The notes beneath the pieces are model-generated. The model was not told the origin of the DNA. It saw only the letters and a list, made by a program, of their open reading frames with translations, and made no database searches. A program made the translations under genes and the position numbers. A DNA stretch of 64,000 nucleotides from Octopus vulgaris (taxonomy: Eukaryota), in contig OX597827.1 in assembly GCA_951406725.2 (NCBI GenBank), positions 62,992,001 to 63,056,000 on the forward strand, written 5' to 3'. Positions 2,624 to 63,050 of this stretch are shown here, one piece after another. Each line of letters begins with the position of its first letter. Position 1 is the stretch's first letter.

Positions 2624-2658
<35 letters not shown>

Positions 2659-2659
<1 letters not shown>

Positions 2660-3069
2660 TCTTTACTCTTTACTCTTTTACTTGTTTCAGTCATTTGACT
2701 GCGGCCATGCTGGAGCACCGCCTTTAGTCGAGCAAATCGACCCCGGGACTTATTCTTTGTAAGCCCAGTACTTATTTTATCGGTCTCTTTTGCCGAACCG
2801 CTAAGTGACGGGGACGTAAACACACCAGCAGCTGGTTGTCAAGCAATGCTAGGGGGACAAACACAGACACACAAACACACACACATATATATAAATACAT
2901 ATATACGACAGGCTTCTTTCAGTTTCCGTCTACCAAATCCACTCTCAAGGCATTGGTCGGCCCGGGGCTATAGAAGAAGACATTTGCCCAAGATGCCACG
3001 CAGTGGGATTGAACCCGGAACCACGTGGTTGGTTAGCCAGCTACTTACCACACAGCCACTCCTGCGCCT
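2659..3069 (-). mobile_element. SINE family A, full length with internal (TA)/(CA) tract
   Basis: Head, CTTGGGCAAGTGTCTTC-type core, internal microsatellite, 3' module and (AAAGAGTA)n tail. Confidence 0.9.
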
Positions 3070-3350
3070 ATATATATATATATATATATAAACAATAATA
3101 AATCTCTGAGCGAGGTATAAACAGTAGCTGCACGACTGCGTAAAGTATATTGCAACTTAAATGTGGCTAACCCTTAAGGGTGGATGGTAGTGTAGCTTGT
3201 AGCCTTAGGAAGAAACCTCCTCCAGCTGGCTATTTACAAACTTTCTGTGCCCTATCGGCATTTGCAAAGAGAAGCCATCCATCCAATCTTCCCATCTCCA
3301 ACCTGTATGATACACATGGACTCGAGTTTCTGAGTATTGACCTGTCATCA

Positions 3351-9230: not shown

Positions 9231-10666
9231 GAATATAAAAATGGAACAAAAACGCAATAGAGGGCATCAAAACGTTCGGACAGATAGACGATACAAAGGC
9301 AGCCAAAGAAACTACAATTAGAAGGACAGGCAAATAAAGGCGGATAATTCTTTGCTTTCTTTCATCAGTCAAGTTCCAGAAATCACGACCATTTCGGACA
9401 GTTACACTTGAGATGGTTCGATCTGGTTGTCCCCATAACCTAAGAGCATTAGACCACTGTGTGCATGTATATTACATACACATGCTCACACACATATACA
9501 TACACACATATCTATCACTTCATTATACATCCTGATCACAATGCGCTTTGTCGTTGTGGGTAACTAAACATTGCAAAGACCAGCATCCTATAGTAAGCAA
9601 AGTTAACTGTCAATCTGCACCAACAACCAGAACTCTCTTTTGGCTCATTTGAAACTATTCACCGTTAGTATTCTTCCTTAATTTTACCCCTAATATGCGA
9701 GCACCTCACGGCTTTCCTTAAGCGTGTAAAATGGATTATGATATTAATTATAAATCTGTGCCCGTTAAATCTTTTCTGTAAGCATACACTGATTCTTCTA
9801 AGAAAAACACTTCATTTAACGAGAATCCGATATCGCTAAGCACAGTAAAACTTCAGTAAAAGCACTGCTCCTAGTGATTTTACTGACGTTGCCTTCGAAC
9901 AAATAGTAATAATAATCACTGATTCTACCACCCATCAGTATCAGTCTCACTTAATAACACTCAACGGTTCGTAGCAGTCATCAGGAAACGCCAAGAAGAG
10001 GTTCAAACACGGTATATGGATCAAACCAATGAAAACGAGATTCAGATCGCCATTATCAGCTAATGACAACAAATGTAACATAGAAGCTCTGAAAGTCTTG
10101 TCAATCAGAACCAACTATGAAAAGAGTCAAGAGTCCTCATCTTAAAAAATGTTGAAGGATGATACCTTTAGAATATGTGAACCACGAGCAAATTATACAG
10201 ACCAGATAAACTTTATTGTTGATATATGCGCTCCAGCGTAGTTTGTAGGCCAAAGATACATTTAGGTCGCTGACGATCATGCCCTTTGACACTATCAAGA
10301 GCTCGCACGAGGGAAGAGACTACTGTTGTTTAAGTATATTTTGAAGTATATTTGTCACCTAAATGTGGCAAATATACTTCGCGATGTCGTGCTGCTACTG
10401 TTTACATCTCGCTCAGAGATTTATTATGGCTGAAGTATAATCTCTTTCCCAAATTGGTTGATCTCGCTGTTTCTCTCGTTGAACAGCACGTCTTTTCCTA
10501 CTTTTTATTTTTCGGGCATCAAATCACAGTTATGGATCAGATTGAAGTCTTGCTGGATCATATGACATTCTGAAGCTTAAAGTCACTGGCAAAGATTTTT
10601 TTTATTATACTACGTTTAATGATAATTCCAATATCATTTACCCAAATAAAAGAAGTGAGCCCACAA

Positions 10667-10897
10667 GGCGGCGAGCTGGCAGAAACGTTAGCACGCCGGG
10701 CGAAATGCTTCGCGGTATTTCGTCTGTCTTTATGTTCTGAGTTCAAATTCCGCCGAGGTCGACTTTGCCTTTCATCCTTTCGGGGTCGATTAAATAAGTA
10801 CCAGTTACGCTCTGGGGTCGATATTATCGACTCAATCCGTTTGTCTGTCCTTGTTTGTCCTCTCCGTGTTTAGCTCCTTGTGGGTAGTAAAAAAATA
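10667..10897 (+). mobile_element. SINE family B, full length
   Basis: Near-identical to the copies at 12109, 33181 and 62214. Confidence 0.9.
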
Positions 10898-10939
10898 GGT
10901 ATTACCATGGGGAATATCACCAATGAAATTTGCAGGGTT

Positions 10940-12108: not shown

Positions 12109-12335
12109 CGGCGAGCTGGCTGAAACGTTAGCACGCCGGACGAAATGCATAGCCGTATTTCGTCTGCCGTTACGTTCTGGGTTCAAATTCCGCCGAGGTC
12201 GACAGCCTTTCATCCTTTCGGGGTCGATAAATTAAGTACCAGTTACGCACTGGGGTTGATGTAATCGACTTAATCCGTTTGTCTGTCCTTGTTTGTCCCC
12301 TCTGTGTTTCGCCCCTTGTGGGTAGTAAAGAAATA
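12109..12335 (+). mobile_element. SINE family B
   Basis: Perfect 17 bp TSD TATGACGATCAAACTAT at 12092-12108 and 12336-12352. Confidence 0.9.
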
Positions 12336-15256: not shown

Positions 15257-15985
15257 CTTCAAGAGAGTTAGGGGTTGTGAGTCCAACCCACTAAGGGATA
15301 ATACCTATCCAATATACTGTTAATAGAATACCCAATTATTAAATAAACGAGTGTTTTTTATTGCATTGCAATTACATTATATAGTGTATTAAATGGCAGA
15401 AAGTAAAGAGATATTTTACCATTAAGTTATATTGGCAATAAGAAAATGGAGAAAAATTGTTGGTTCATCCACTTTAGGACATTAAAAATGTTAACTTATT
15501 TATTTATTAAACCGATAATTATAATAACATACATACATATAAGATGTAGATATGTATGTATATTTCAGTATATATAATTAATTATCTATAACCATATATG
15601 TATGTAAGTATATATATATATATATATATTCAAATGTGTGTGTATTTTGTTTCATACTTATATTTATATTTATTATTATTGTACTTTATAACTCCTGACG
15701 AAGCCTTGAGATATATACAAGTACCTCATTTTCAACTGCCTATTACCTCAATACACTTGACTAGGCAGAATGAGATGCTTTTATCTATGGGCTGAAACAG
15801 CTGTAAGTTATTTTAATAAATTATATTCATGTTTTTTTAATAATTACTTGTATTCTTATCTTATATGCATAGAATAATATGCTATATGTATGTATGTTAT
15901 TATAATTATCAGTTTAATAAATAAATAAGTTAACATGTTTAATGTCCTAAAGATGATAAACCAACTATTGTTCTCCTCCAATATA
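15255..15985. mobile_element. Penelope-like terminal remnant with inverted segment
   Basis: Starts at (TA)n; inverted repeat ~15455-15541 vs ~15883-15970; contains a hammerhead motif followed by AATAAA. Confidence 0.6.
15688..15811 (+). ncRNA. Minimal type-I hammerhead ribozyme motif
   Basis: AUAACU-C-CUGACGA-AGCC...GGCU-GAAAC-AGCU-GUA-AGUUAU; helix I AUAACU/AGUUAU, long helix II. Confidence 0.7.
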
Positions 15986-16750
15986 TTATATATATTGGGA
16001 AGCTTTATGAAAATAAACAAAAGACGAAGGCAGGTGGAAAACAAACGAACAATTGTATTAGTATGGCGCTCATATATAAAACAAGTAACGTATACGCTCT
16101 TCAACAGAAAGATACACAGAGAGAGAAAAACACAGAAAGAAGGAGAGAAAAAAATGCGTGCAGTAGCTAACGAATCAACATATATTTCGGCCAGAGGTCA
16201 TCAAACATATAAGGGGAGATAATAGGGTTGATAAGTGGGTGTGTGTGTGTGTGTGTGTGTGTATGAGAGAGTATTAGTGCGTAAGATTGGTCTGGACGTG
16301 CGTATGTATGGGGTTGGTGTATGTATTAGTATGTATTAGTATGTATTAGTACGTATTGGTATGTATAGGTGTGTGTGTGTGTGTGAGAGAGAGTATAAGT
16401 GCGTATATATATATATATTTATACGACGGGCTTCATTCAGTTTCTTTCTACCAACTCCACTCACATATAATAATCTTTCAGATAAACTTTTGGATCATAT
16501 CAGTAATTTGCATTGAGTATTTAAGACTGCAGTACAGTAATTATGTTAATTTAAGTTTAATTTAGACCTTTCAGGCGTTTGTATCTATTACGTAGAGAAA
16601 TATATATATTAAGTTGCTTTTTTTGAAACCGGTAGATCAAACTTTATTTATATCAAGCATAAAAGATATCCTTGTTGCTATGATTCATTTATCACGGAAC
16701 TACCACGGTAGTATAATAACAGCCTTACTACTTTGCCGTTAATAACCCGT

Positions 16751-17184
16751 AGGGGAAGGAGCGGCTGTGTGGTAAGTAGCTTTCTTACCAACCACATAGC
16801 TCCAGGTTCAGTCCCAATGCGTGGCATCTTGGGCAAGTGTCTTCTACTATAGCTTCGGGCCGACCAAAGCCTTGTGAGTGGATTTGGTAGACGGAAACTG
16901 AAAGAAGCCCGTCGTATATATGCATATATATATATGCATGTATGTGTTTGTGCATATGTTCGTGTGTCTGTGTTTGTCCCCCCAACATCGTTTGACAACC
17001 GATGCTGGTGTGTTTATGTCCCCGTTACTTAGCGGTTCGGCAAAGGAGACCGAATGAAAAAGTATTAGGCGTACAAATAATAAGTCCTGGAGTCGATTTG
17101 CTCGACTAAAGGCAGGGCTCCAGCATGGCCACAGTCAAATGACTGAAACAACTAAAAGAGTAAAAGACTAAAGAGTAAAGAGTA
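16751..17184 (+). mobile_element. SINE family A, full length
   Basis: Complete head-core-microsatellite-tail match to the other copies. Confidence 0.9.
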
Positions 17185-18458: not shown

Positions 18459-18528
<70 letters not shown>

Positions 18529-18529
18529 C

Positions 18530-18590
<61 letters not shown>

Positions 18591-18665
18591 GGTACAATAA
18601 ACTCAGGGTGAATACTTGATAAATGTAAGCACCTGTATATGCCAGCTAGTAGCATAGGTGATAGG

Positions 18666-18982
18666 ATATATGCATCAAATGAAATAAATGAAAAACAGGA
18701 CACAAAGGATGTTGCGGTACATATGTTTCGGGCTTTATAGAACAACTTATTCTTACATCAATGCATAATCGACATAACAGATAGTTCAAAAGCCCTCTTC
18801 AGCCGCGTGCAATTGCTACACCAAAGACTTAGCAATTGCACGCGGCTGAAGAGGGCTTTTGAACTATCTGTTATGTCGATTATGCATTAATGTAAGAATA
18901 ATTTGTTCTATAAAGCCCGAAACATATGTACCTCAACATCCTTTGTGTCCTGTTTTTCATTTATTTTATTTGATACATATAT
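18666..18982. repeat. Long foldback (153 bp arms, 11 nt spacer), PLE-like
   Basis: 18666-18818 is the reverse complement of 18830-18982 with 5 mismatches by eye; right arm abuts (TA)n. Confidence 0.95.
18714..18806 (-). ncRNA. Minimal type-I hammerhead ribozyme motif (mirror copy at 18842-18934, +)
   Basis: GCGG-CUGAAGA-GGGCUUU...AAAGCCC-GAAAC-AUAU-GUA-CCGC. Confidence 0.8.
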
Positions 18983-19272
18983 ATATATATATATATCAAA
19001 AGTGAGTGTAAAGGGCTATATTATTCTGGCGCTTACCGTATTTTCTCTCAAGTTGATTTCAGATGCCGTCTAACCACACCGGTCCGTATATAGTACTCGA
19101 GCTACAAATGAGTTATTAGGCCCGGGTAACCTCTCTCGTTCGGTAATTCCATGTCTCCTGATCAACACTGCATGTGTTCCGTAGAGAAATTAATAACATT
19201 AATAATGATAAATACAATGGACATTTTTCATATCCGTAATTTTATTTAACACTTACTTGGAGCATATTTTCC

Positions 19273-19358
19273 AGACCTACATGTGTTTCAACTGCAGCAA
19301 CTGCACACTGTTGGATATGCAACCTAGCATCATGGTCGCTGCAGTTTCCTCAGTGTCC
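19273..19358 (-). ncRNA. Minimal type-I hammerhead ribozyme motif
   Basis: GGACA-CUGAGGA-AACUGCAGCGAC...GUUGCUGCAGUU-GAAAC-ACAU-GUA-GGUCU; 12 bp helix II; lies in a TA-flanked insert ~18997-19465. Confidence 0.7.
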
Positions 19359-19463
19359 TTCACTATAGACCGTTTCGAAATAAACTGAAGAAAACAATGA
19401 GCTCTTGATTTCTGCTTATAATTATATATGTTATTTTCTCCATGCTTCTAATAATTAGTAATG

Positions 19464-19534
<71 letters not shown>

Positions 19535-19677
19535 AAATAGAAAGATGAATAATCTTGTAGCAGATTAATCAAAAGTTTAACCGATACCTTGGTAGCAAAA
19601 ATCACAGCAGAAGACAGCACGGTTGGAGGTACAACCATATGGTGTTGCAACCGTGCGTTGGTGCGGATAATTGAAAT

Positions 19678-20131
19678 TAAAATATTATTGGTGAATTGAA
19701 GAAATGGAGCTGAACGAAGATTGAACAGAAATCGTTTTATTTCATTCTACACGTGTTTCGAAAGGCACAATTTACCAAAATCCGATTGAATAATGAGACC
19801 ATATTGTGTCTTTCTCTTCAGGAAGAAATAGGAAATCCGTTGGAAAAAACAAAAACAGAACAGAGGCGGAGCAAAACAAATCGAACTAGGCTCCTAAGTT
19901 TTGCCATGGGCTCTTAGGAGCCTACTTCGATTTGTTTTGCTCCGCCTCTGTTCTGTTTTTGTTTTTCCAACGGATTTCCTATTTCTTCCTGAAGAGAAAG
20001 ACACAATATGGTCTCATTATTCAATCGGATTTTGGTAAATTGTGCCTTTCGAAACACGTGTAGAATGAAATAAAACGATTTCTGTTCAATCTTCGTTCAG
20101 CTCCATTTCTTCAATTCACCAATAATATTTT

Positions 20132-20132
<1 letters not shown>
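19678..20132. repeat. Long foldback (~220 bp arms, 14 nt spacer), PLE-like
   Basis: 19678-19898 vs 19913-20132; about one mismatch and one indel by eye; flanked by (TA)n. Confidence 0.95.
19982..20070 (+). ncRNA. Minimal type-I hammerhead ribozyme motif (mirror copy at 19740-19828, -)
   Basis: UUUCUUC-CUGAAGA-GAAAGACACAAU...AUUGUGCCUUUC-GAAAC-ACGU-GUA-GAAUGAAA, immediately followed by AAUAAA. Confidence 0.8.
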
Positions 20133-20211
<79 letters not shown>

Positions 20212-20364
20212 TTTATATACAAAGAGAGAGGTTATGAGAGGTAATGGTGTCAATAAGACCCAAAGGTGTCAGGTAATGCTGAGTAAGTACTATGGATAGA
20301 GCATAGTTAACCTCCAGGTTCGGTGATTATGCCAACGTAGGTCATATATCAGCATGTGTATATA

Positions 20365-22089: not shown

Positions 22090-22225
22090 TACAAATAAAT
22101 AATTATTCTCTATTTTCCCCTACTATTGATAATTTCAATAATCCTGATTACATATATCAATGAATATCGCGTTATATGATACGGATTAAACCAGTCGAAT
22201 ATACATATATATAAATATGTATATA

Positions 22226-22645
22226 TTACTCTTTTGCTCTTTTATTTGTTTCAGTCAATCGACTGCGGCCATACTGGAGCACCGCCTTTAATCGAGCAAC
22301 TCTACCCCGGGACTTATTCTTTGTAAGCCCAGTACTTATTCTATCGGTCTCTTTTGCCGAATCGCTAAGTGACGGGGACATAAAGACACCAGCATCGGTT
22401 GTCAAGCGATGTTGGATGGGACAAACACAGACACACAAACAAACACTCATATATATATATATATACATACATACATATATACGACAGGCTTCTTTCAGTT
22501 TCCATCTACCAAATCCACTCACAAGGCTTTGGTCGGCCCGAGGCTATAGTAGAAGACACTTGCCCAAGGTGCCACGCAGTGGGACTGAACCCGGAACCAT
22601 GTGGTTCGCAAACAAGCTACTTACCACACAGCCACTCCTGCACCT
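22226..22645 (-). mobile_element. SINE family A, full length
   Basis: Full-length match to the family. Confidence 0.9.
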
Positions 22646-22675
<30 letters not shown>

Positions 22676-23841: not shown

Positions 23842-24791
23842 AATGGGACAAGAACGCAAAATATCCAGACAGTTAGTTGAAACAAAAAAGGGACAACAAA
23901 ACATCCAGACAGACGATACAAAAAAAACACAAGGACGGGTCATTCGGAGTTTTCTTTCTACAGTCGAGTTCCAGATATTATCTTTGCAATTTCGGCCTGT
24001 TATACTCGAGATCAACATCGCCCTTTTTTTTATCATTTCGGTATGTACTAGGCTGAGTAATAAACTACCAGTTAAGTACTGGAACTTTATTCATCTACAA
24101 GTCTAGTACTGGTGTCGATTCTTCCTTTGCTATCTTGAATATACCTGTAACAAAAGGGTCTCTCCTTTGTTGTATCGGTTATTACTTTGTGAATGCCTCG
24201 TGGAATACTCAACCACTTAGACGTCAATTTCATGAGTAAGAGATTTTGATATTCAGTATGGAATGGGGTTAAAACCACTAACACTAGGTCTTTTAACTGA
24301 CGTTCTCATAACACTGCCAAATTCGTCACTTTCACTTTCATTGTGAAATTGCGTTTAACATATGCCTGAGACAAAATTTGATATATTTAAATGAATAAAG
24401 ATATATTGCGTATAACACAGATATATTTATGGTCAATACAGTAACATAATAAATGGCAGAGACAGGTTTGATATTAGAAAGACCAAAAAAAAAACAAAAG
24501 GCAAAAGAATGAAACAGACACCAAAAGCGTAATTACAATTGAGATAATGGTAATGTAATAACGATATTGCTTCTGAAGAATACATATCTCTATAGGGAAA
24601 TGCTATATGTTATATTTCAAAAATAAAAAAAATCACGACATCATAGACATTATAGAATATATAGTACATTGTTTTATTATTTGTCATGTAAAGAATAGTT
24701 CTTAAAAACAACAATTAATATGAATCGAATAGAGCTAAAAAGTTAAAAAAAAAAAGAAAATTTCAAAAATGTTGTTATTTGATACATATAT

Positions 24792-24958
24792 AGGTGCAGG
24801 AGTGGCTGTGTGGTAAGTAGCTTGCTAACCAACCACATCGTTCCGGGTTCAGTCCCACTGCGTGGCATCTTGGGCAAGTGTCTTCTGCTATAGCCCCCGG
24901 GCCGACCAATGCCTTGTGAATGGATTTGGTAGACGGAAACTGAAAGAAGCCTGTCGTA

Positions 24959-24997
<39 letters not shown>

Positions 24998-25214
24998 ATA
25001 TGTTTGTGTGTCTGTGTTTGTCCCCCTAGTATTGCTTGACAACCGATGCTGGTGTGTTTACGTCCCCGTCACTTAGCGGTTCGGCAAAAGAGACCGATAG
25101 AATAAGCACTGGGCTTACAAAGAATAAGTCCCGGGGTCGATTTGCTCGACTAAAGGCGGTGCTCCAGCATGGCCGTAGTAAAATGACTGAAACAAGTAAA
25201 AGAGTAAAAGAGTA
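24792..25214 (+). mobile_element. SINE family A, full length
   Basis: Full-length match to the family. Confidence 0.9.
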
Positions 25215-25521
25215 TATATAAAACAAACGATGGTTCTCGGAAGTGGGGAAAAGTAGATTTCTAAAACAAAGCTTGTGTGTGAATTAGAATCTGTAGTTGC
25301 AAGGGTATAAGAACACGAAGATCTCCAATTTCTCGTAGGTAGTAAGTTTGTTGTGTTATTTTGTTGTGTGACGCACTCTGCAAAGTGCATTACACGGAAA
25401 GTGTATGGAAGGTGTGGCTATGTTATAGGAAGTTTGTTTCTCGTCCACACGGTTCTGGTTTCAGTCCCACTGCGTGATACCTTAGGCAAGTGTATTCTAC
25501 GGAAAGTGAAAGAAGCCCGTC

Positions 25522-33138: not shown

Positions 33139-33795
33139 GTAGGAGTGGCTGTGTGATAGGTAAGTTGATTGCTTACCTTAAGGCGGCGAGCTGACACAAA
33201 CGTTAGCATGTCGGGCGAAATGCGTAACCGTATTTCGTCTGCCGCTACGTTCTGAGTTCAAATTCCGCCGAGGTCAACTTTGCCTTTCATCCTTTCGGGG
33301 TCGATTAAATAAGTACCAGTTGCGCACTGGGGGTCGATATAATCGACTTAATGCATTTGTCTGTCCTTGTTTGTCCTCTCTGTGTTTAGCCCCTTGTGGG
33401 TAGTAAAGAAATAGGTAAGTTGATTGCTTACCAACCACATGGCTCCGGGTTCAGTCCCACTGCGTGGCACCTTGGGCAAGTGTCTTCTACTATAGCCTCG
33501 GGGCGACCAAAGCCTTGTGAGTAGATTTGGTAGACGGAAAGAGAAAGAAGCCTGTCGTATATATGTATGTATATATATGTGTATGTGTGTGTGTGTGTCT
33601 GTATTTGCCCCTCCCCCAACATCGCTTGACAACCGATGGTGGTATGTTTACCTCCCCGTAACTTAGCAGTTCGACAAAAGGGGCTGATAGAATAAATACT
33701 ATGCTTACAAAGAATAAGTTCTGGGGCGGATTTGCTCGAATGAAGGTGATGCTCCAGCATGGCCGCGCTGAAAGGACTGAAACAAGTAATAGAAA
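33139..33795 (+). mobile_element. SINE family A interrupted by SINE family B (33181-33410)
   Basis: 22 bp duplication ATAGGTAAGTTGATTGCTTACC at 33156-33177 and 33411-33432 brackets the B copy. Confidence 0.9.
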
Positions 33796-34199
33796 AAAAA
33801 ATATCTACAGGAAACGGGCTACTCGACCCGATGAAAATTCTAACAGGGTCCTACCTATAAGGTCATGGGCACTTTATCTTGGCATGAGATCATCACATCG
33901 CGCTACATGCATGACAGCCACAACAACACATTTTTCAGATGTCTTAAAATTTATGAAATTTTACTCAAAACTTTTAGTATTTCCTAGAAAGATTTAGAGT
34001 TAGCCTCGCTGCGTAGAGGATAAACTTGTAGGAAATAAGACCCTCACCTGTCTACTTTCTCGTATCAATTTCATTTATACTGAGAATGAAAAGGAAGCCT
34101 TATTCTTATCACGTGACCTGTTAAACCTAACAGTTTAACTATTCCCCAAGTCACATCCTATTTACTGCCTTAGAAAAAAGCATTTTCAATTATGCTGTT

Positions 34200-35680: not shown

Positions 35681-36419
35681 GTGTAATTTTCCAGCTTCAT
35701 AATAGAAACTTTTTCGAATGCTTGCTTTAGTGAAAATTTCGGGTCTAGATTTCAGAAGGTCGGTGGACTTCTTACATTTAAAAGAAATTTAAAGTCTTTC
35801 GTTTATTCAAAACCTTCAACTCATTGTTCTACTAACGTGTGACGTGGATCATGCTACGTCGCTCCATATGATTCTTCGTGGGATATTGTTGGCCTATAGG
35901 TCCTCTAGCTAAATTAATGTTTTCTTCTCGTCTACGTGTCGGAAAGAAGACTGGTTGTTGGCATATATTTTATAAAGTTCTATTTATGTAGACCGATAGA
36001 CTTTATCTTTTGAGTTCTGTCATGTTGAAGAAATGATGTGGATTCAGTCTCATAAAACGCAGAGATAACCGAACCGAGTGCGTGTCTGGGTCTCTGATAT
36101 ATTTTTGAATAGATGCGTGGTATGCTCTGCACTCCTTTGGACTATGTCAGCAAGGTCGAGAGAGGAATCCTGATGATTGGGCTACCCTGGATTTTCTTAC
36201 ATCTAGTCCAGGCCTGCGCAAAACTGAAGAGGAAACTGGAGAAGACATGAAATGCAAAAACCAGACTGGATTACATTTAGTACTCAAATGACACCGAGGT
36301 CAACTTTGCATTTCATCCTTTCGGATTCAACAAAGCAAATACCCATTAAATATTGGGGGTCGATCACATCGACTTATGACACTCGTAAAAATGCACCATA
36401 ATTAAAATGCATTATTATT

Positions 36420-36640
36420 ATATTTCTTTATTGCCCACAAGGGGCTAAACACAGAGAGGACAAACAAAAACAGACGAAGGGATAAAGCCGATAACATCGA
36501 CCCCAGTGCGTAACTGGTACTTAATTTATCGACCCCGAAAGGATGAAAGGCAAAGTCGACCTCGGCGGAGTTTGAACCCAGAACGTAACGGCAGACGAAA
36601 TACGGCTACGTATTTCGCCCAGCGTGCTAACGTTTCTGCC
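36420..36640 (-). mobile_element. SINE family B
   Basis: Reverse-complement match to the family; a diverged + fragment lies at 36290-36380. Confidence 0.85.
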
Positions 36641-37144
36641 ATTATAATTCTCATTATTGCTATTGTTATTGTTGTTGCTGCTGCTATCTTTAATTGCTGT
36701 AGTGATGGCGTTAGTGGTAGTCGTAGGAGCAGCACCATTACTAATTGTAGTATACGATTTTTTTCTGCTTTCAGTCCAACCACGTTTTAGATATTTCTAT
36801 TTTCAGATCTTTATAATTGGATAATTTGTCTATTTCTATAGGAATTTCATAATCGGTTGACTGAACTGATACCTCTACTGAGAGGTACATCCTTTTATTG
36901 GTAGTTTTTCACGACAATATCCTGCCGATTTTCCTTAATTTCCTTCTCTATATGGATCGGCATAAAGCCATATGTAGTTACCGTGTCACTCCTTGAGACC
37001 GTTTCTATTGTATATTGTATACCTCTTCTTTAGTGTCGGTATTTCATAATCATGATTCTATGTTCTGTATCTGAAAGCCTCAACGTTCTCATGTATATGT
37101 GTGAATTTGGGAGCGGAGTGTAAAAGATATGAATAAAAATGTTA

Positions 37145-44449: not shown

Positions 44450-44534
44450 AAAAAAGGGGTAGAATTAATTAATTGTTAATCAATTCGACCAAGCAGTATT
44501 CGGTATGTAAAAGGACCATTTACGGTATATTTGA

Positions 44535-44997
44535 AGTATTAATTTATAAAAATATGGTAAAGTAAAAAAATTCACTTTACCGCACACCGAACTTTTCACA
44601 AATAGCAGCCAAAAATTTGGCTATTTCTTCAACTGCAAGTAAAAGTCTCCAGACAATGCATACTCAGAAAATAACTCACATAGGTATAAGGGAAAAACAA
44701 TGAAAGATCACATCCATATAAGATACCCGAGAACAGCCTGTTTCTGGATTCGTGGGTTAAACGCCACTTTTCCTTCTAACCCACGAATCCAGAAACAGGC
44801 TGTTCTCGGGTATCTTATATGGATGTGATCTTTCATTGTTTTTCCCTTATACCTATGTGAGTTATTTTCTGAGTATGCATTGTCTGGAGACTTTTACTTG
44901 CAGTTGAAGAAATAGCCAAATTTTTGGCTGCTATTTCTGAAAAAGTTCGGTGTGCGGATAAAGTGAATTTTTACTTTACCATATTTTTATAAATTAA

Positions 44998-45001
<4 letters not shown>
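44535..45001. repeat. Long foldback (~225 bp arms, 17 nt spacer), PLE-like
   Basis: 44535-44759 vs 44777-45001 with few differences; the insert 44447-45001 lies between (TA)n tracts. Confidence 0.95.
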
Positions 45002-48207: not shown

Positions 48208-48630
48208 CTCTTTTTACTCTTCTACTCTTTTACTTGTTTCAGTCATTTGACTGCGGCCATGCTGGAGCACCGCCTTTAATCGAGCAACTCGACCCCAGGA
48301 CTTATTCTTTTGGAAGCCCAGTACTTATTCTATCGGTCTCTTTTGCCGAACCGCTAAGTAACGGGGACATAAACACACCAGCATCGGTTATCAAGCGATG
48401 CTATAGGGGGACAAACACAGACACACGAACACACACACACACACACATATATATATACACATATATACGACGGGCTTCTTTCAGTTTCCGTCTACCAAAT
48501 CCACTCACAAGGCTTTGGTCAGCCCGAGGCTATAGTAGAAGACACTTGCCCAATGTGCTACGCAGTGGGACTGAACCCGGAACCATGTGGTTGGTAAACA
48601 AGCTACTTACCACACAGCCACTCCTGCACC
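48208..48630 (-). mobile_element. SINE family A nested in the Tc1 5' region
   Basis: Full-length family match directly after the left TIR. Confidence 0.9.
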
Positions 48631-48716
48631 TAGTTTCAAAATTTTGAAATATGTTTTGCTAAAATTGCTGTTTCTTTTCAGATATCACCAGAAAAAGGTA
48701 ATTAAAATCCATTAAA

Positions 48717-49690
48717 ATGACAGATACATCTGACTTTCATAGAGGTCAAATTGTAGGTGCTCATATGGTAGGCGTTAGCATAACAAAAACAGCCGAAATA
48801 TTTAGTGTATCAAGAAGTACTGTCTCGAAAGTAATGACAGCCTTTGAGAAAGAGGGAAAAACCTCCTCGTCGAAACAAAACTACGGAAGCAAACCAAAAC
48901 GGTCAGATAGAGATCGTTGGACTCTTACGCAAATTGTTTGAAAGGTTCACAAAAATACAGCTCCCAAAATTACTGCAGAACTTAAGGACCACCTCTAGAA
49001 CTCAGTTTCCACAAAAACTGTTCGCCAGGAGCTGCACAAACAATCGTTGCAGTGTATAGAGTGGAGTAAAAACCTACAGAATTGGTTCCTAGAGTAGTGG
49101 AAGAATGTTATATTCTCGGACGAGTCCTCCTTTACCTTATTTCCGACCACCGGCCGAGTATATGTATGGAGAAAACCAAAAGAAGCATTTGACCCAGACT
49201 GCCTTCTTCCAATTGTTAAACATGGAGGAGGATCTGTGATGATCTGGGTGGGGGCTATATCATGAAAATTTGCCGGCCCATTCGTTTGACTTCATGGCAG
49301 AATTAATAATCAAGACTACTTATGCATTTTATGCCATAAAATTCTTTCTATGGTTGCGGAACTCTTTCCGGAGGGAAATGCAATCTTTCAGGATTATAAT
49401 GCAACAATTCACACAGCTCAATTTAGTACTGAATGGCACGAGGAATATTCTAGTGAAGTTGAACACAATAACTGGCCACTACAAGCCCCAGATCTCAATA
49501 TTGTTGAACATTTATGGTGTATTTTTGAAAAACGATTAAGGAGTCGATATCTTCTACCACAACACTGGAAACTGTTTTAGCAGAAAAATGGACTAAAGTT
49601 CCTTTGGAAACAATTCAAACTTTGTACGAGTCCATACCTAGCAGAATTCAAGCCGTAAATACTACCAAAGGCGGTCCTACCCCAAATCAA
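48717..49690 (+). pseudogene. Tc1-family transposase pseudogene (DD36E spacing)
   Basis: HTH (RGQIVGA...TAEIFSVSRSTVSKV), VIFSDES, VKHGGGSVMIW, FQDYNATIH, WPLQAPDLNIVEHLW; stops and frameshifts. Confidence 0.9.
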
Positions 49691-53909: not shown

Positions 53910-55358
53910 AGATAAACTACCTGTATCAACTTGCTATAAAAGCAGGTAGTAATCTTGTACTTATCCTTAGTTTTAGTTTTGAAAATTACAGTTCGATTTT
54001 AACAGAATTTTTTCAAAGCTATAATAGAAGTGACAAAGCAGCATATTCGGAATATTTTGCTTTATGAGTACAACAAAAGTAGCAATGGAACGGAATGTGT
54101 GAGGAATATTAAATGCAGAATATGGGGATTGGACAATAAGGGTAAGCCAGCGTCAAGGGTGGTTCCAGAAATTTCGAGCCGGAAACTACAGCCTAGAAAA
54201 CGAGCCTCGTGCTAGATCTGTAGAGCTTGACGACCACGTTCTGCAAATCCTGGTGGAATAAAGCCCCGTCGTAACTTGTTTCTTTACTATCCACAAGGGG
54301 CTAAACAGAGGAGACAAACAAGGACAGACAGACGGTTTAAGTCGATTATATCGACCCCAGTGCGTAACTGGTACTTAATTTACCGACCCCGAAAGGATGA
54401 AAGGCAAAGTCGACCACGGCGGTATTTGAGCCCAGAACGTAACGGCAGACGAAATAGCGCTCAGCATTTCGCCCAGCGTGCTAACGTTTCTGTCAGCCTC
54501 GTCGTAACTGTTGAGGAACTAGCAGAGAAGCTTGGATTTCGTCATTCAACTATTCATCGACACCTGTGTACCATCGGAAAAGTCAGTAAATTGGGTCAAT
54601 ACATTCCTTACAAACTTTCCGAATCTAATGGCGCGCAGAGAGTGAATGTGTGCTCTTCTGTGTTCACGTCTCATGAATGCACCATTTCTGAACCCAATAG
54701 TGACTGGTGGTGAGAAAAGCATTCTCTATAAAAATATGAAGTACCGAAGACAGTGGGTAGGGAAAGGAAAAAGACCCACACCCTAGGCTACAGAAGGTCT
54801 TCACCCAAGTAAGGTGTTCTTACCTCTTTGGTGGCATATGAAAAGTTTAGTCGACTTTGAACTTTTAAACCCAAATCAAACGATAACAAAGAAGATCTAC
54901 TTTGAGCATTTTAGCAGCTAAAGTCAGCGCTAGAAGAAAAACGACCATCTTTGGCTTCAAGACAAAAGGTGTCCTTCCATCAGGATAATGCTTGGCCACA
55001 TACACTGACGATGCCATTCCAAAGGCTTGAGCAGTTTGAATGGGAAACAATGCTCGACCCACCATATTCACTGGACATTGCCCCATCAGATTATCATTTA
55101 TTCTGCAATCGGCAAAATTATTTGGTCGGAAAAAATACAGATTCTGTCGATGAGGTAAGAACAATGCTGCAGGAGTATTTTTCCTCACTGAGAAGTGAAT
55201 TTTGGAAGAGGGGCCTTGCAAGTCTACCAGATAGATGGAAGAGCGTGGTAGAATGTGAAGGAGAGTATATTTTGGACTAAAAATGAACTTTATTTACCTT
55301 AATTTTGAAAAATAAAAGAAGAATAAAGAAAACCGCATTATTTATAGGATGACCCAAT
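53910..55358 (+). pseudogene. Mariner (DD34D) transposon remnant
   Basis: HIRNILLYEY, TVEELAEKLGFRHSTIHRHL, HQDNAWPHT...PPYSLDIAPSDYHLF (34-residue spacing); right end CCGCATTATTTATAGGATGACCCAA|TA; left TIR not found. Confidence 0.9.
54277..54499 (-). mobile_element. SINE family B inserted in the mariner transposase
   Basis: TSD CGTCGTAACT at 54267-54276 and 54500-54509. Confidence 0.9.
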
Positions 55359-61794: not shown

Positions 61795-62213
61795 AACGTG
61801 TGAAATAGAATATACTGTTTGTGCCATTTGTTCCCTGTGGCTGTTTTGCCATTGTGGATATTTGCATCCCCAGCAGTAGGTATTCCTAAACAAATTGGAA
61901 ACAAATTCACAACGGTTCTCTTCAGGGGAACACTTTATTACATTATGTGAACAGAAAGCAAACACACACACACATATGAACACGCGCATACATTTGCGTA
62001 TGTACGTACGTGTACATATATATATCTAAACAGAGAGAGAGAGAGAGAGAGTGAGTAATCGGGAGAGAGAGAGAGAGAGATTTGTAGATATTATACATGC
62101 ATAATACATATATATTTTTATGTAGGTTTTTGCGCTTAAGCACATACATATATGTGTGCGTGGATATTTATGCGTGCATGTATAAATCCCTTTTTCTATT
62201 AGAGTAAATACAA

Positions 62214-63050
62214 GGCGGCGAGCTGGCAGAAACGTTAGCACGCCGGGCGAAATGCTTATCGGTATTTCGTTTGCCGCTACGTTCTGAGTTCAAATTCCGC
62301 CGAGGTCGACTTTGCCTTTCATCCTTTCGGGGTCGATTAAATAAGTACCAGTTGCGCACTGGGGTCGATATAATCGACTTAATCCGTTTGTCTGTCCTTG
62401 TTTGTCCTCTCTGTGTGTAGCCCCTTGTGGGTAGTAAAGAAATAGGTATTTCATATCCCTTACGTTCTGAGTTCAAATTCCGCCAAGGTCGACTTTACCT
62501 TTCATCCTTTCGGAGTCGATTAATTAAGTACCAGTGGAAAACTAAGATCGATCTAATCAACTGGCCACTTCGCCAAAATTGTAGGGCCTTGTGCGTAGTG
62601 TAGAAATGAATATCTATAAGGCGTCGAGCTAGCAGAAACGTTAGCATACCAGGCGAAATACTTGGCGGTATTTCAAGTCTTTACCTTCTGAGTTCAAATT
62701 CCGCCGAAGTTGGCTTTGCCTCTTATCCTTTCGGGGTCGATGAATTATGTACCAGTTACGCACTGGAGTCGATGCAATCGACTTAATCCCTTTGTTTGTC
62801 CTTGTTTGTACCTTCTTTGTTTAACCCCTTGTGGGCAATAAAGAAATAAGAAACTTTAACATGCCAGGCGAAATACTTTGCGGTATTTCATCATCTTTAC
62901 GTTCTGAATTCAAATTCCGCCGAGGTCGACTTTGCCTTTCATCCTTTCGGGGTCAATAAAGTAAGTACCAGTTGCATACTGGGGTCGATCATAATCGACT
63001 GGTCCCTTTCCCAAAATTTCGGGCCTTGTGCCTAGAGTAGGAAAGATTAT
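62214..63050 (+). mobile_element. Tandem cluster of four SINE family B units
   Basis: Units start at ~62214, ~62447, ~62619 and ~62849, alternating two different tails. Confidence 0.9.

Follow-up and report, generated by a model that had tools for sequence, protein, structure and literature searches.

Why should a foldback in the Octopus vulgaris genome carry one hammerhead motif on each of its strands, and is such a structure a built RNA switch or the trace of another process? We analyzed this foldback (E1) together with two neighboring hammerhead repeats (E2 and E3) in the same window, the term used here for the whole 64 kb stretch of DNA under analysis. E1 is, with high probability, one insertion of a Penelope-like element (PLE), in which two 5′-truncated, hammerhead-bearing 3′ ends are joined head-to-head in a (TA)n microsatellite. 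All features open to testing agree with a PLE end, with formal membership awaiting an ORF, and a known PLE process rather than a built RNA switch is the most likely explanation of the locus.

An inverted-repeat search returned two arms of 153 nt (18666-18818 and 18830-18982) that are 97% complementary and 11 nt apart, and self-BLAST placed the arm differences at 5 of the 153 positions (18889, 18902, 18933, 18967, and 18975). The first-pass annotation had described 153-bp foldback arms with one hammerhead motif per strand, and both were recovered. Its extent for the foldback, 18666 to 18982, is correct for the arms, but E1 starts further left, at about 18587, and (TA)n makes up the final 6 bp of the arms. 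The additional left-hand sequence is a one-sided extension of 79 nt, which we assign to the left copy because sequencing depth stays high across 18590-18665; in the bin 18590-18644, the summed depth equals that of the arm in each of three public runs (X1, X3, and X4). Self-BLAST showed that the right copy lacks this tail. TA tracts adjoin both outer ends of E1, as they do for both E2 and E3, and of the window positions outside TA, about 1.2% are no more than 3 nt away from such an edge.

Table. Positions of E1, its parts, and its neighbors within the window, with the strand on which each is read
Feature	Positions	Strand	Remarks
(TA)17 tract	18553..18586		3′ end of E1 left copy; likely insertion target
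E1 left-copy tail, 79 nt, one-sided, at its 3′ end	18587..18665	-	member of repeat family
E1 left arm, putative 5′-truncated element end	18666..18818	-	sense on minus strand; inverted-repeat search and self-BLAST
Type I hammerhead motif, intact	18714..18806	-	helix I GCGG/CCGC; core CUGAAGA from 18802; helix II 7 bp; loop II 52 nt; loop III AUAU; H17 at 18718, predicted cut after it
E1 spacer, 11 nt	18819..18829	-	likely extra 5′ bases of left copy; junction at about 18829/18830
E1 right arm, inverted, putatively more 5′-truncated, tail-less	18830..18976	+	match carries on into TA tract to 18982
Type I hammerhead motif, helix I mismatch	18842..18934	+	core CUGAAGA from 18846; T at 18933; inner stem of loop II weakened; H17 at 18930, predicted cut after it
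(AT)10 tract	18977..18996		3′ end of E1 right copy; likely insertion target
E2, lower-copy repeat unlike E1	18997..19464	-	single long-loop hammerhead motif, core 19353; flanked by two TA tracts
E3, foldback of the same plan as E1	19532..20135		177-nt arms with 2 mismatches; cores 19821 (-) and 19989 (+); loop III ACGU

Both strands of E1 contain CUGAAGA, GAAAC, and GUA, in agreement with the hammerhead core of CUGANGA, GAAA, and UH. Helix II is formed by GGGCUUU and AAAGCCC, followed downstream by GAAAC-AUAU-GUA, and the long loop II is itself structured. Helices I, II, and III of the minus motif, which is open at helix I, comprise 4, 7, and 2 bp, whereas helix I of the plus motif reads GCGG/CCUC and retains three of its four pairs. 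The loop III region, ACAUAUGU, pairs with itself over 8 bp (-7.0 kcal/mol). These readings match what had been noted at first pass: helix I intact on the minus strand and mismatched on the plus strand, a self-complementary loop III region, and a predicted plus-strand cut after 18930. The hammerhead sits near the 3′ end, its predicted cut site being 131 nt from the TA boundary in the tailed copy and 47 nt from it in the untailed one. Among the 40 variant rows listed of 246, none falls in the E1 hammerhead helices.

A hammerhead descriptor found five motifs in the 64 kb window vs. a mean of 0.04 (maximum 1) in 100 dinucleotide shuffles, and a strict descriptor found four vs. none in 100 shuffles. 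Rfam gave no hits in the window at the gathering score, and its 37 matches with E ≤ 10 in 18500-20300 contained no hammerhead, only a generic hairpin and other sub-threshold matches. Rfam is blind to the E1 hammerheads probably because their loop II is so long.

Four of 24 public runs (X1, X3, X4, and X8) were compared with 18590-20230, the summed depths being read as orders of magnitude only and not as copy numbers. The left copy of E1 reached a summed depth of 68,000-259,000 in X1, vs. 29-71 for the eight long pieces listed, and the depth ratios in X3 and X4 were similar; with this thousand-fold excess, the E1 family is therefore a high-copy repeat. Right-arm bins containing mismatches were about 15- to 200-fold lower in depth, whereas the near-identical arms of E3 were similar to each other. 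Because depth favors the left arm in E1 but neither arm in E3, we infer that the right copy alone acquired most of the arm differences, among them the helix I break at 18933. At position 18673, it is the left copy, and not the right, that departs from the family.

The same runs bear on the center of the foldback. Two X1 contigs leave the left arm and enter the spacer, reaching 18820 and 18830, and one X8 contig continues 27 nt past 18830 with letters that do not come from the window. Since these contigs read from the left arm through the spacer, the spacer is likely 5′ sequence of the left copy, and since the X8 contig continues with other letters, the E1 family appears to be longer than the insert. 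A 148-nt contig in X8 matches the left arm with one difference; X8 is an RNA run by guess, and the contig is not counted as expression. Among the rows listed, E1 is represented by one joint and by one row with inserted letters, the latter resembling another head-to-head junction at the core.

E1, E2, and E3 follow one another, set off by four TA tracts. Helix II of the E2 hammerhead has 9 Watson-Crick pairs, or 12 with G-U; downstream of the hammerhead come a donor-like site, GTAAGT, and a broken frame, which we take to resemble the start of a Penelope ORF. E3 is unrelated to E1 in sequence (self-BLAST) and belongs to a family of even higher copy number; its tail is likewise one-sided (about 145 nt), with TA tracts on both sides, and at the tail-less end, copies seen as loose ends in X3 and X4 run out into (TA)n at 19678/19682. 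Sequence continues upstream of the junction for E3 in X1 and X8 and for the left copy of E1 in X8, and E1 and E3 are on this account read as truncated pieces of longer elements.

An upstream loose end of E3 carries a frame that, by eye, closes some 100 nt ahead of the core in PPVLNIH-stop-stop, a P-x-LN form that we presume to be the end of a PLE endonuclease. By eye, it also resembles the endonuclease ends (..LN..) aligned for PLEs in the accessible part of the supplement of PMC8557442. The sequence of this loose end suggests that it may be a PLE endonuclease C-terminus.

The E3 family further shows how its arms are joined. Among the 15 joints listed of 39, 11 connect E3 arms at varied points, and 1 of these 11 retains both hammerhead cores (coordinates read by hand). 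Nearly all joints concern E3, and each is weak alone because its short side measures only 24-29 nt, below the cautionary 30.

Four families in the window have GAAAC-NNNN-GUA in common, and their helix II sequences differ yet pair; three of their loops III are palindromic (AUAU, ACGU, and AGCU) and the fourth is ACAU. Pairing maintained across different helix II sequences, together with the palindromic loops, lends cross-family support to a real ribozyme fold.

The window contains further repeats. A sixth hammerhead-like motif at 15688-15810 on the plus strand (core 15695) has 92 nt between its core halves and a palindromic loop III, AGCU; it sits in 15448-15976, a segment bounded by 94-nt inverted repeats (93%). 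Another foldback at about 44500-45000 has perfect 160-bp arms (44600-44759 and 44777-44936) around a 17-nt spacer, near TA tracts, and contains only a degenerate core-like sequence, UUGAAGA...GAAA, at 44904. Broken remnants of Tc1/mariner-type transposases lie at 48702-49577 and 54003-55277 (Pfam HTH, DDE_3, and HTH_48). Two dispersed SINE-like families, presumably typical of octopus genomes, measure about 430 bp (2632-3090, 16750-17175, 22199-22666, 24782-25220, 33414-33809, and 48210-48632) and about 230 bp (10663-10903, 12109-12335, 33180-33417, 36419-36641, 54279-54497, and 62210-62450).

Searches for the parent element were negative within their scope. No RT or GIY-YIG ORF for the E1 family was found at the locus or in a Pfam search of 93 of the 294 candidate frames of the window, which returned transposase-type matches and one weak match only. 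Protein searches with the tail frames of E1 and E3 and with the frame downstream of E2 (X at stops) were empty. Exact-pattern scans gave no match to the E1 or E3 motif in metagenome_contigs and none in viral_contigs; the nine 18-mer matches in genome_contigs, none longer than 21 nt, compare with about 17 expected by chance and were rejected. A candidate intron, drawn by eye with GTAAG in loop II and TACAG in the tail as its two ends, was dropped because the spliced frames tried ran into stops. In the accessible part of the Craig supplement (PMC8557442), five of six hammerhead 11-12-mers from the window had no match and the sixth stood, by eye, in an unlike context. The published octopus Naiad ends and the Hydra consensus, in their accessible form, gave no match to exact short words or by eye, a comparison in which line breaks can hide hits. 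Searches of the openly accessible literature on octopus hammerheads and on hammerhead inverted repeats and ADAR, with Repbase/Dfam outside their scope, listed no account of the hammerhead families of the window.

Without an ORF linked to its family in the 93 Pfam frames or in the E1 tail-frame protein search, and with long inverted arms, TA-rich flanks, and a high copy number, E1 could be taken for a palindrome that is itself mobile, a MITE-like or non-autonomous foldback element with a fixed junction and an incidental hammerhead. Its ends, however, are asymmetric and are not the fixed terminal inverted repeats of such an element: the 79-nt extension is one-sided, and the family sequence runs past the junction in another contig. 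The junctions of E3 also vary, and the inverted repeat meets at its center and frames no interior. We therefore regard a mobile palindrome as unlikely.

What the hammerheads could do was assessed by fold prediction. Taken alone, the minus copy of E1 forms helix I with a probability of about 0.76 and helix II with a probability above 0.8, its hammerhead state lying 0.5 kcal/mol above the minimum; in the plus copy, helix I is not formed, and the hammerhead state lies 3.9 kcal/mol above the minimum. In an unconstrained cofold, two minus copies are predicted to adopt a double hammerhead (-57.8 kcal/mol vs. -47.0 kcal/mol for two monomers), consistent with the minimal, dimer-type anatomy proposed at first pass, and the cofold of the plus homodimer yields no double hammerhead. 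Decay appears to be under way in the plus copy.

The outcome differs for an RNA that reads through the whole foldback. On either strand, the full 317-nt transcript is predicted to form a hairpin of -246 to -251 kcal/mol, about 133 kcal/mol below the best fold that keeps a hammerhead, with a hammerhead pair probability of 0.00. Because both motifs point outward from the center, the antisense arm would always be transcribed first, whichever strand is read. E1 read-through RNA is thus predicted to zip into a duplex of about 150 bp that hides the ribozyme. The first-pass annotation had expected long dsRNA to compete with cleavage; the prediction supports the dsRNA but not a balanced competition.

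These energies weigh on the idea of a selected ribozyme/antisense switch, a hairpin retained for the control that it exerts, through duplex formation, editing, or dicing, over the cleavage of a host transcript. Its attraction is that folding is predicted for the intact minus motif, and that, in the accessible text of PMC5625713, lizard Penelope is heavily A-to-I edited and octopus hyper-editing is very high, with octopus transcripts heavily edited overall. However, a predicted hairpin advantage of this size leaves no switchable balance; helix I is broken in the plus copy, where the depth in favor of the left arm suggests private decay; most of the E3 junctions listed lose one core; and the 93 window frames tested with Pfam yielded no host exon. 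A selected switch is accordingly a very unlikely account of E1.

Slighter still is the chance of an assembly or library artefact, that is, one repeat copy turned into a fold-back chimera. It would explain why, among the contigs listed, none bridges the junction of E1 itself at 18830 with 31 nt on each side, but the two arms differ from each other, each end has a TA flank of its own, and inverted junctions of these families are seen in independent runs. Least probable of all is that E1 is a fragment of a metazoan non-LTR retrozyme, which is likewise non-coding, high-copy, and equipped with a type I hammerhead (in E1 with a palindromic loop III), and which the accessible part of 10.64898/2026.07.22.740005 proposes as a PLE derivative, because retrozymes are head-to-tail tandems, whereas E1 is a head-to-head pair whose sole other copy in the window is inverted (self-BLAST).

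A PLE insertion thus remains the preferred reading, and its steps can be proposed by analogy. The PLE endonuclease, judging from the PLE literature, would nick AT-rich DNA at a TA tract. Reverse transcription could then start at either of two internal sites, leaving one tailed and one tail-less copy, and the inverted junction would arise when synthesis terminates early and either primes itself or jumps template. The hammerhead may serve the RNA of the parent element as a ribozyme that is weak and assisted by dimer formation or by protein; at the E1 locus, it is likely a passenger, and the foldback passive.

As a single locus, E1 is typical retroelement debris and of little weight. Foldbacks of its type nevertheless amount to ready-made duplex RNA if transcribed, and ADAR editing of E1 duplex RNA is plausible as a by-product. 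Hammerheads with loops II of 33-84 nt occur in four unrelated repeats of one 64 kb window and escape Rfam, which means that surveys of such genomes may fall well short of the true number of hammerheads. A broader conjecture, which we hold only tentatively and think doubtful as a whole, is that the genome contains several Penelope-like families of high copy number whose hammerheads, with their long loop II, are missed by Rfam and by short-spacer descriptors; that the many head-to-head insertions of these families would be a large source of near-perfect duplex for ADAR hyper-editing; and that transcripts started at the junctions could release sense ribozymes from both strands, cutting each other as trans dimers.

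The first-pass annotation missed that E1 is the usual inverted-end structure of PLE insertions, which is already in print. In the accessible parts of the papers concerned, PLE insertions are described with an inverted 5′-truncated copy, a tail of 30-40 bp, and a (TA)n bias, octopus PLEs with (TA)n preference are listed, and an identical hammerhead is tabulated on both strands of Penelope-13_HM (PMC8557442 and its supplement); the head-to-head arrangement is the most frequent one, with self-priming proposed (PMC3846280); and the tail is tied to two RT start sites, cleavage is AT-rich, and the hammerhead is protein-assisted and dispensable for insertion in vitro (PMC11167929). E1 accordingly resembles the inverted pLTRs of EN+ PLEs (Penelope/Poseidon, Neptune, and Hydra clades; Penelope-13_HM and Adineta Pen2a_Av), sharing with them, as far as the accessible descriptions go, a 3′-end hammerhead, a head-to-head 5′-truncated copy, an optional one-sided tail, a (TA)n target, and hammerheads on both strands. 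It differs in that its copies are too truncated to leave an ORF, and the tails of E1 (79 nt) and E3 (about 145 nt) are longer than the 30-40 bp in print (PMC8557442, accessible part).

The hammerhead itself is close to the minimal type I hammerheads of metazoan PLEs. These sit in PLE pLTRs and cleave at a low, dimer-dependent level, and opposite-strand pairs of them, 100-700 bp apart, are already described (Cervera and de la Pena 2014, PMC4209133, accessible part). With them, and within the same portion of that source, E1 shares a 4-bp helix I, a 7-bp helix II with G10.1-C11.1, a short palindromic helix III region, a predicted dimer fold, and the opposite-strand pairing, but it has no extra base before helix II. 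Its structured loop II of 52 nt contrasts with the 3-10 nt of the Hydra/Repbase rows in the accessible part of Craig File S2 (PMC8557442), where loops of 29 and 35 nt occur in two plant PLE-X1 rows alone, flagged as non-canonical. The recurring long loop II is the only step beyond print that the literature searches made have left open.
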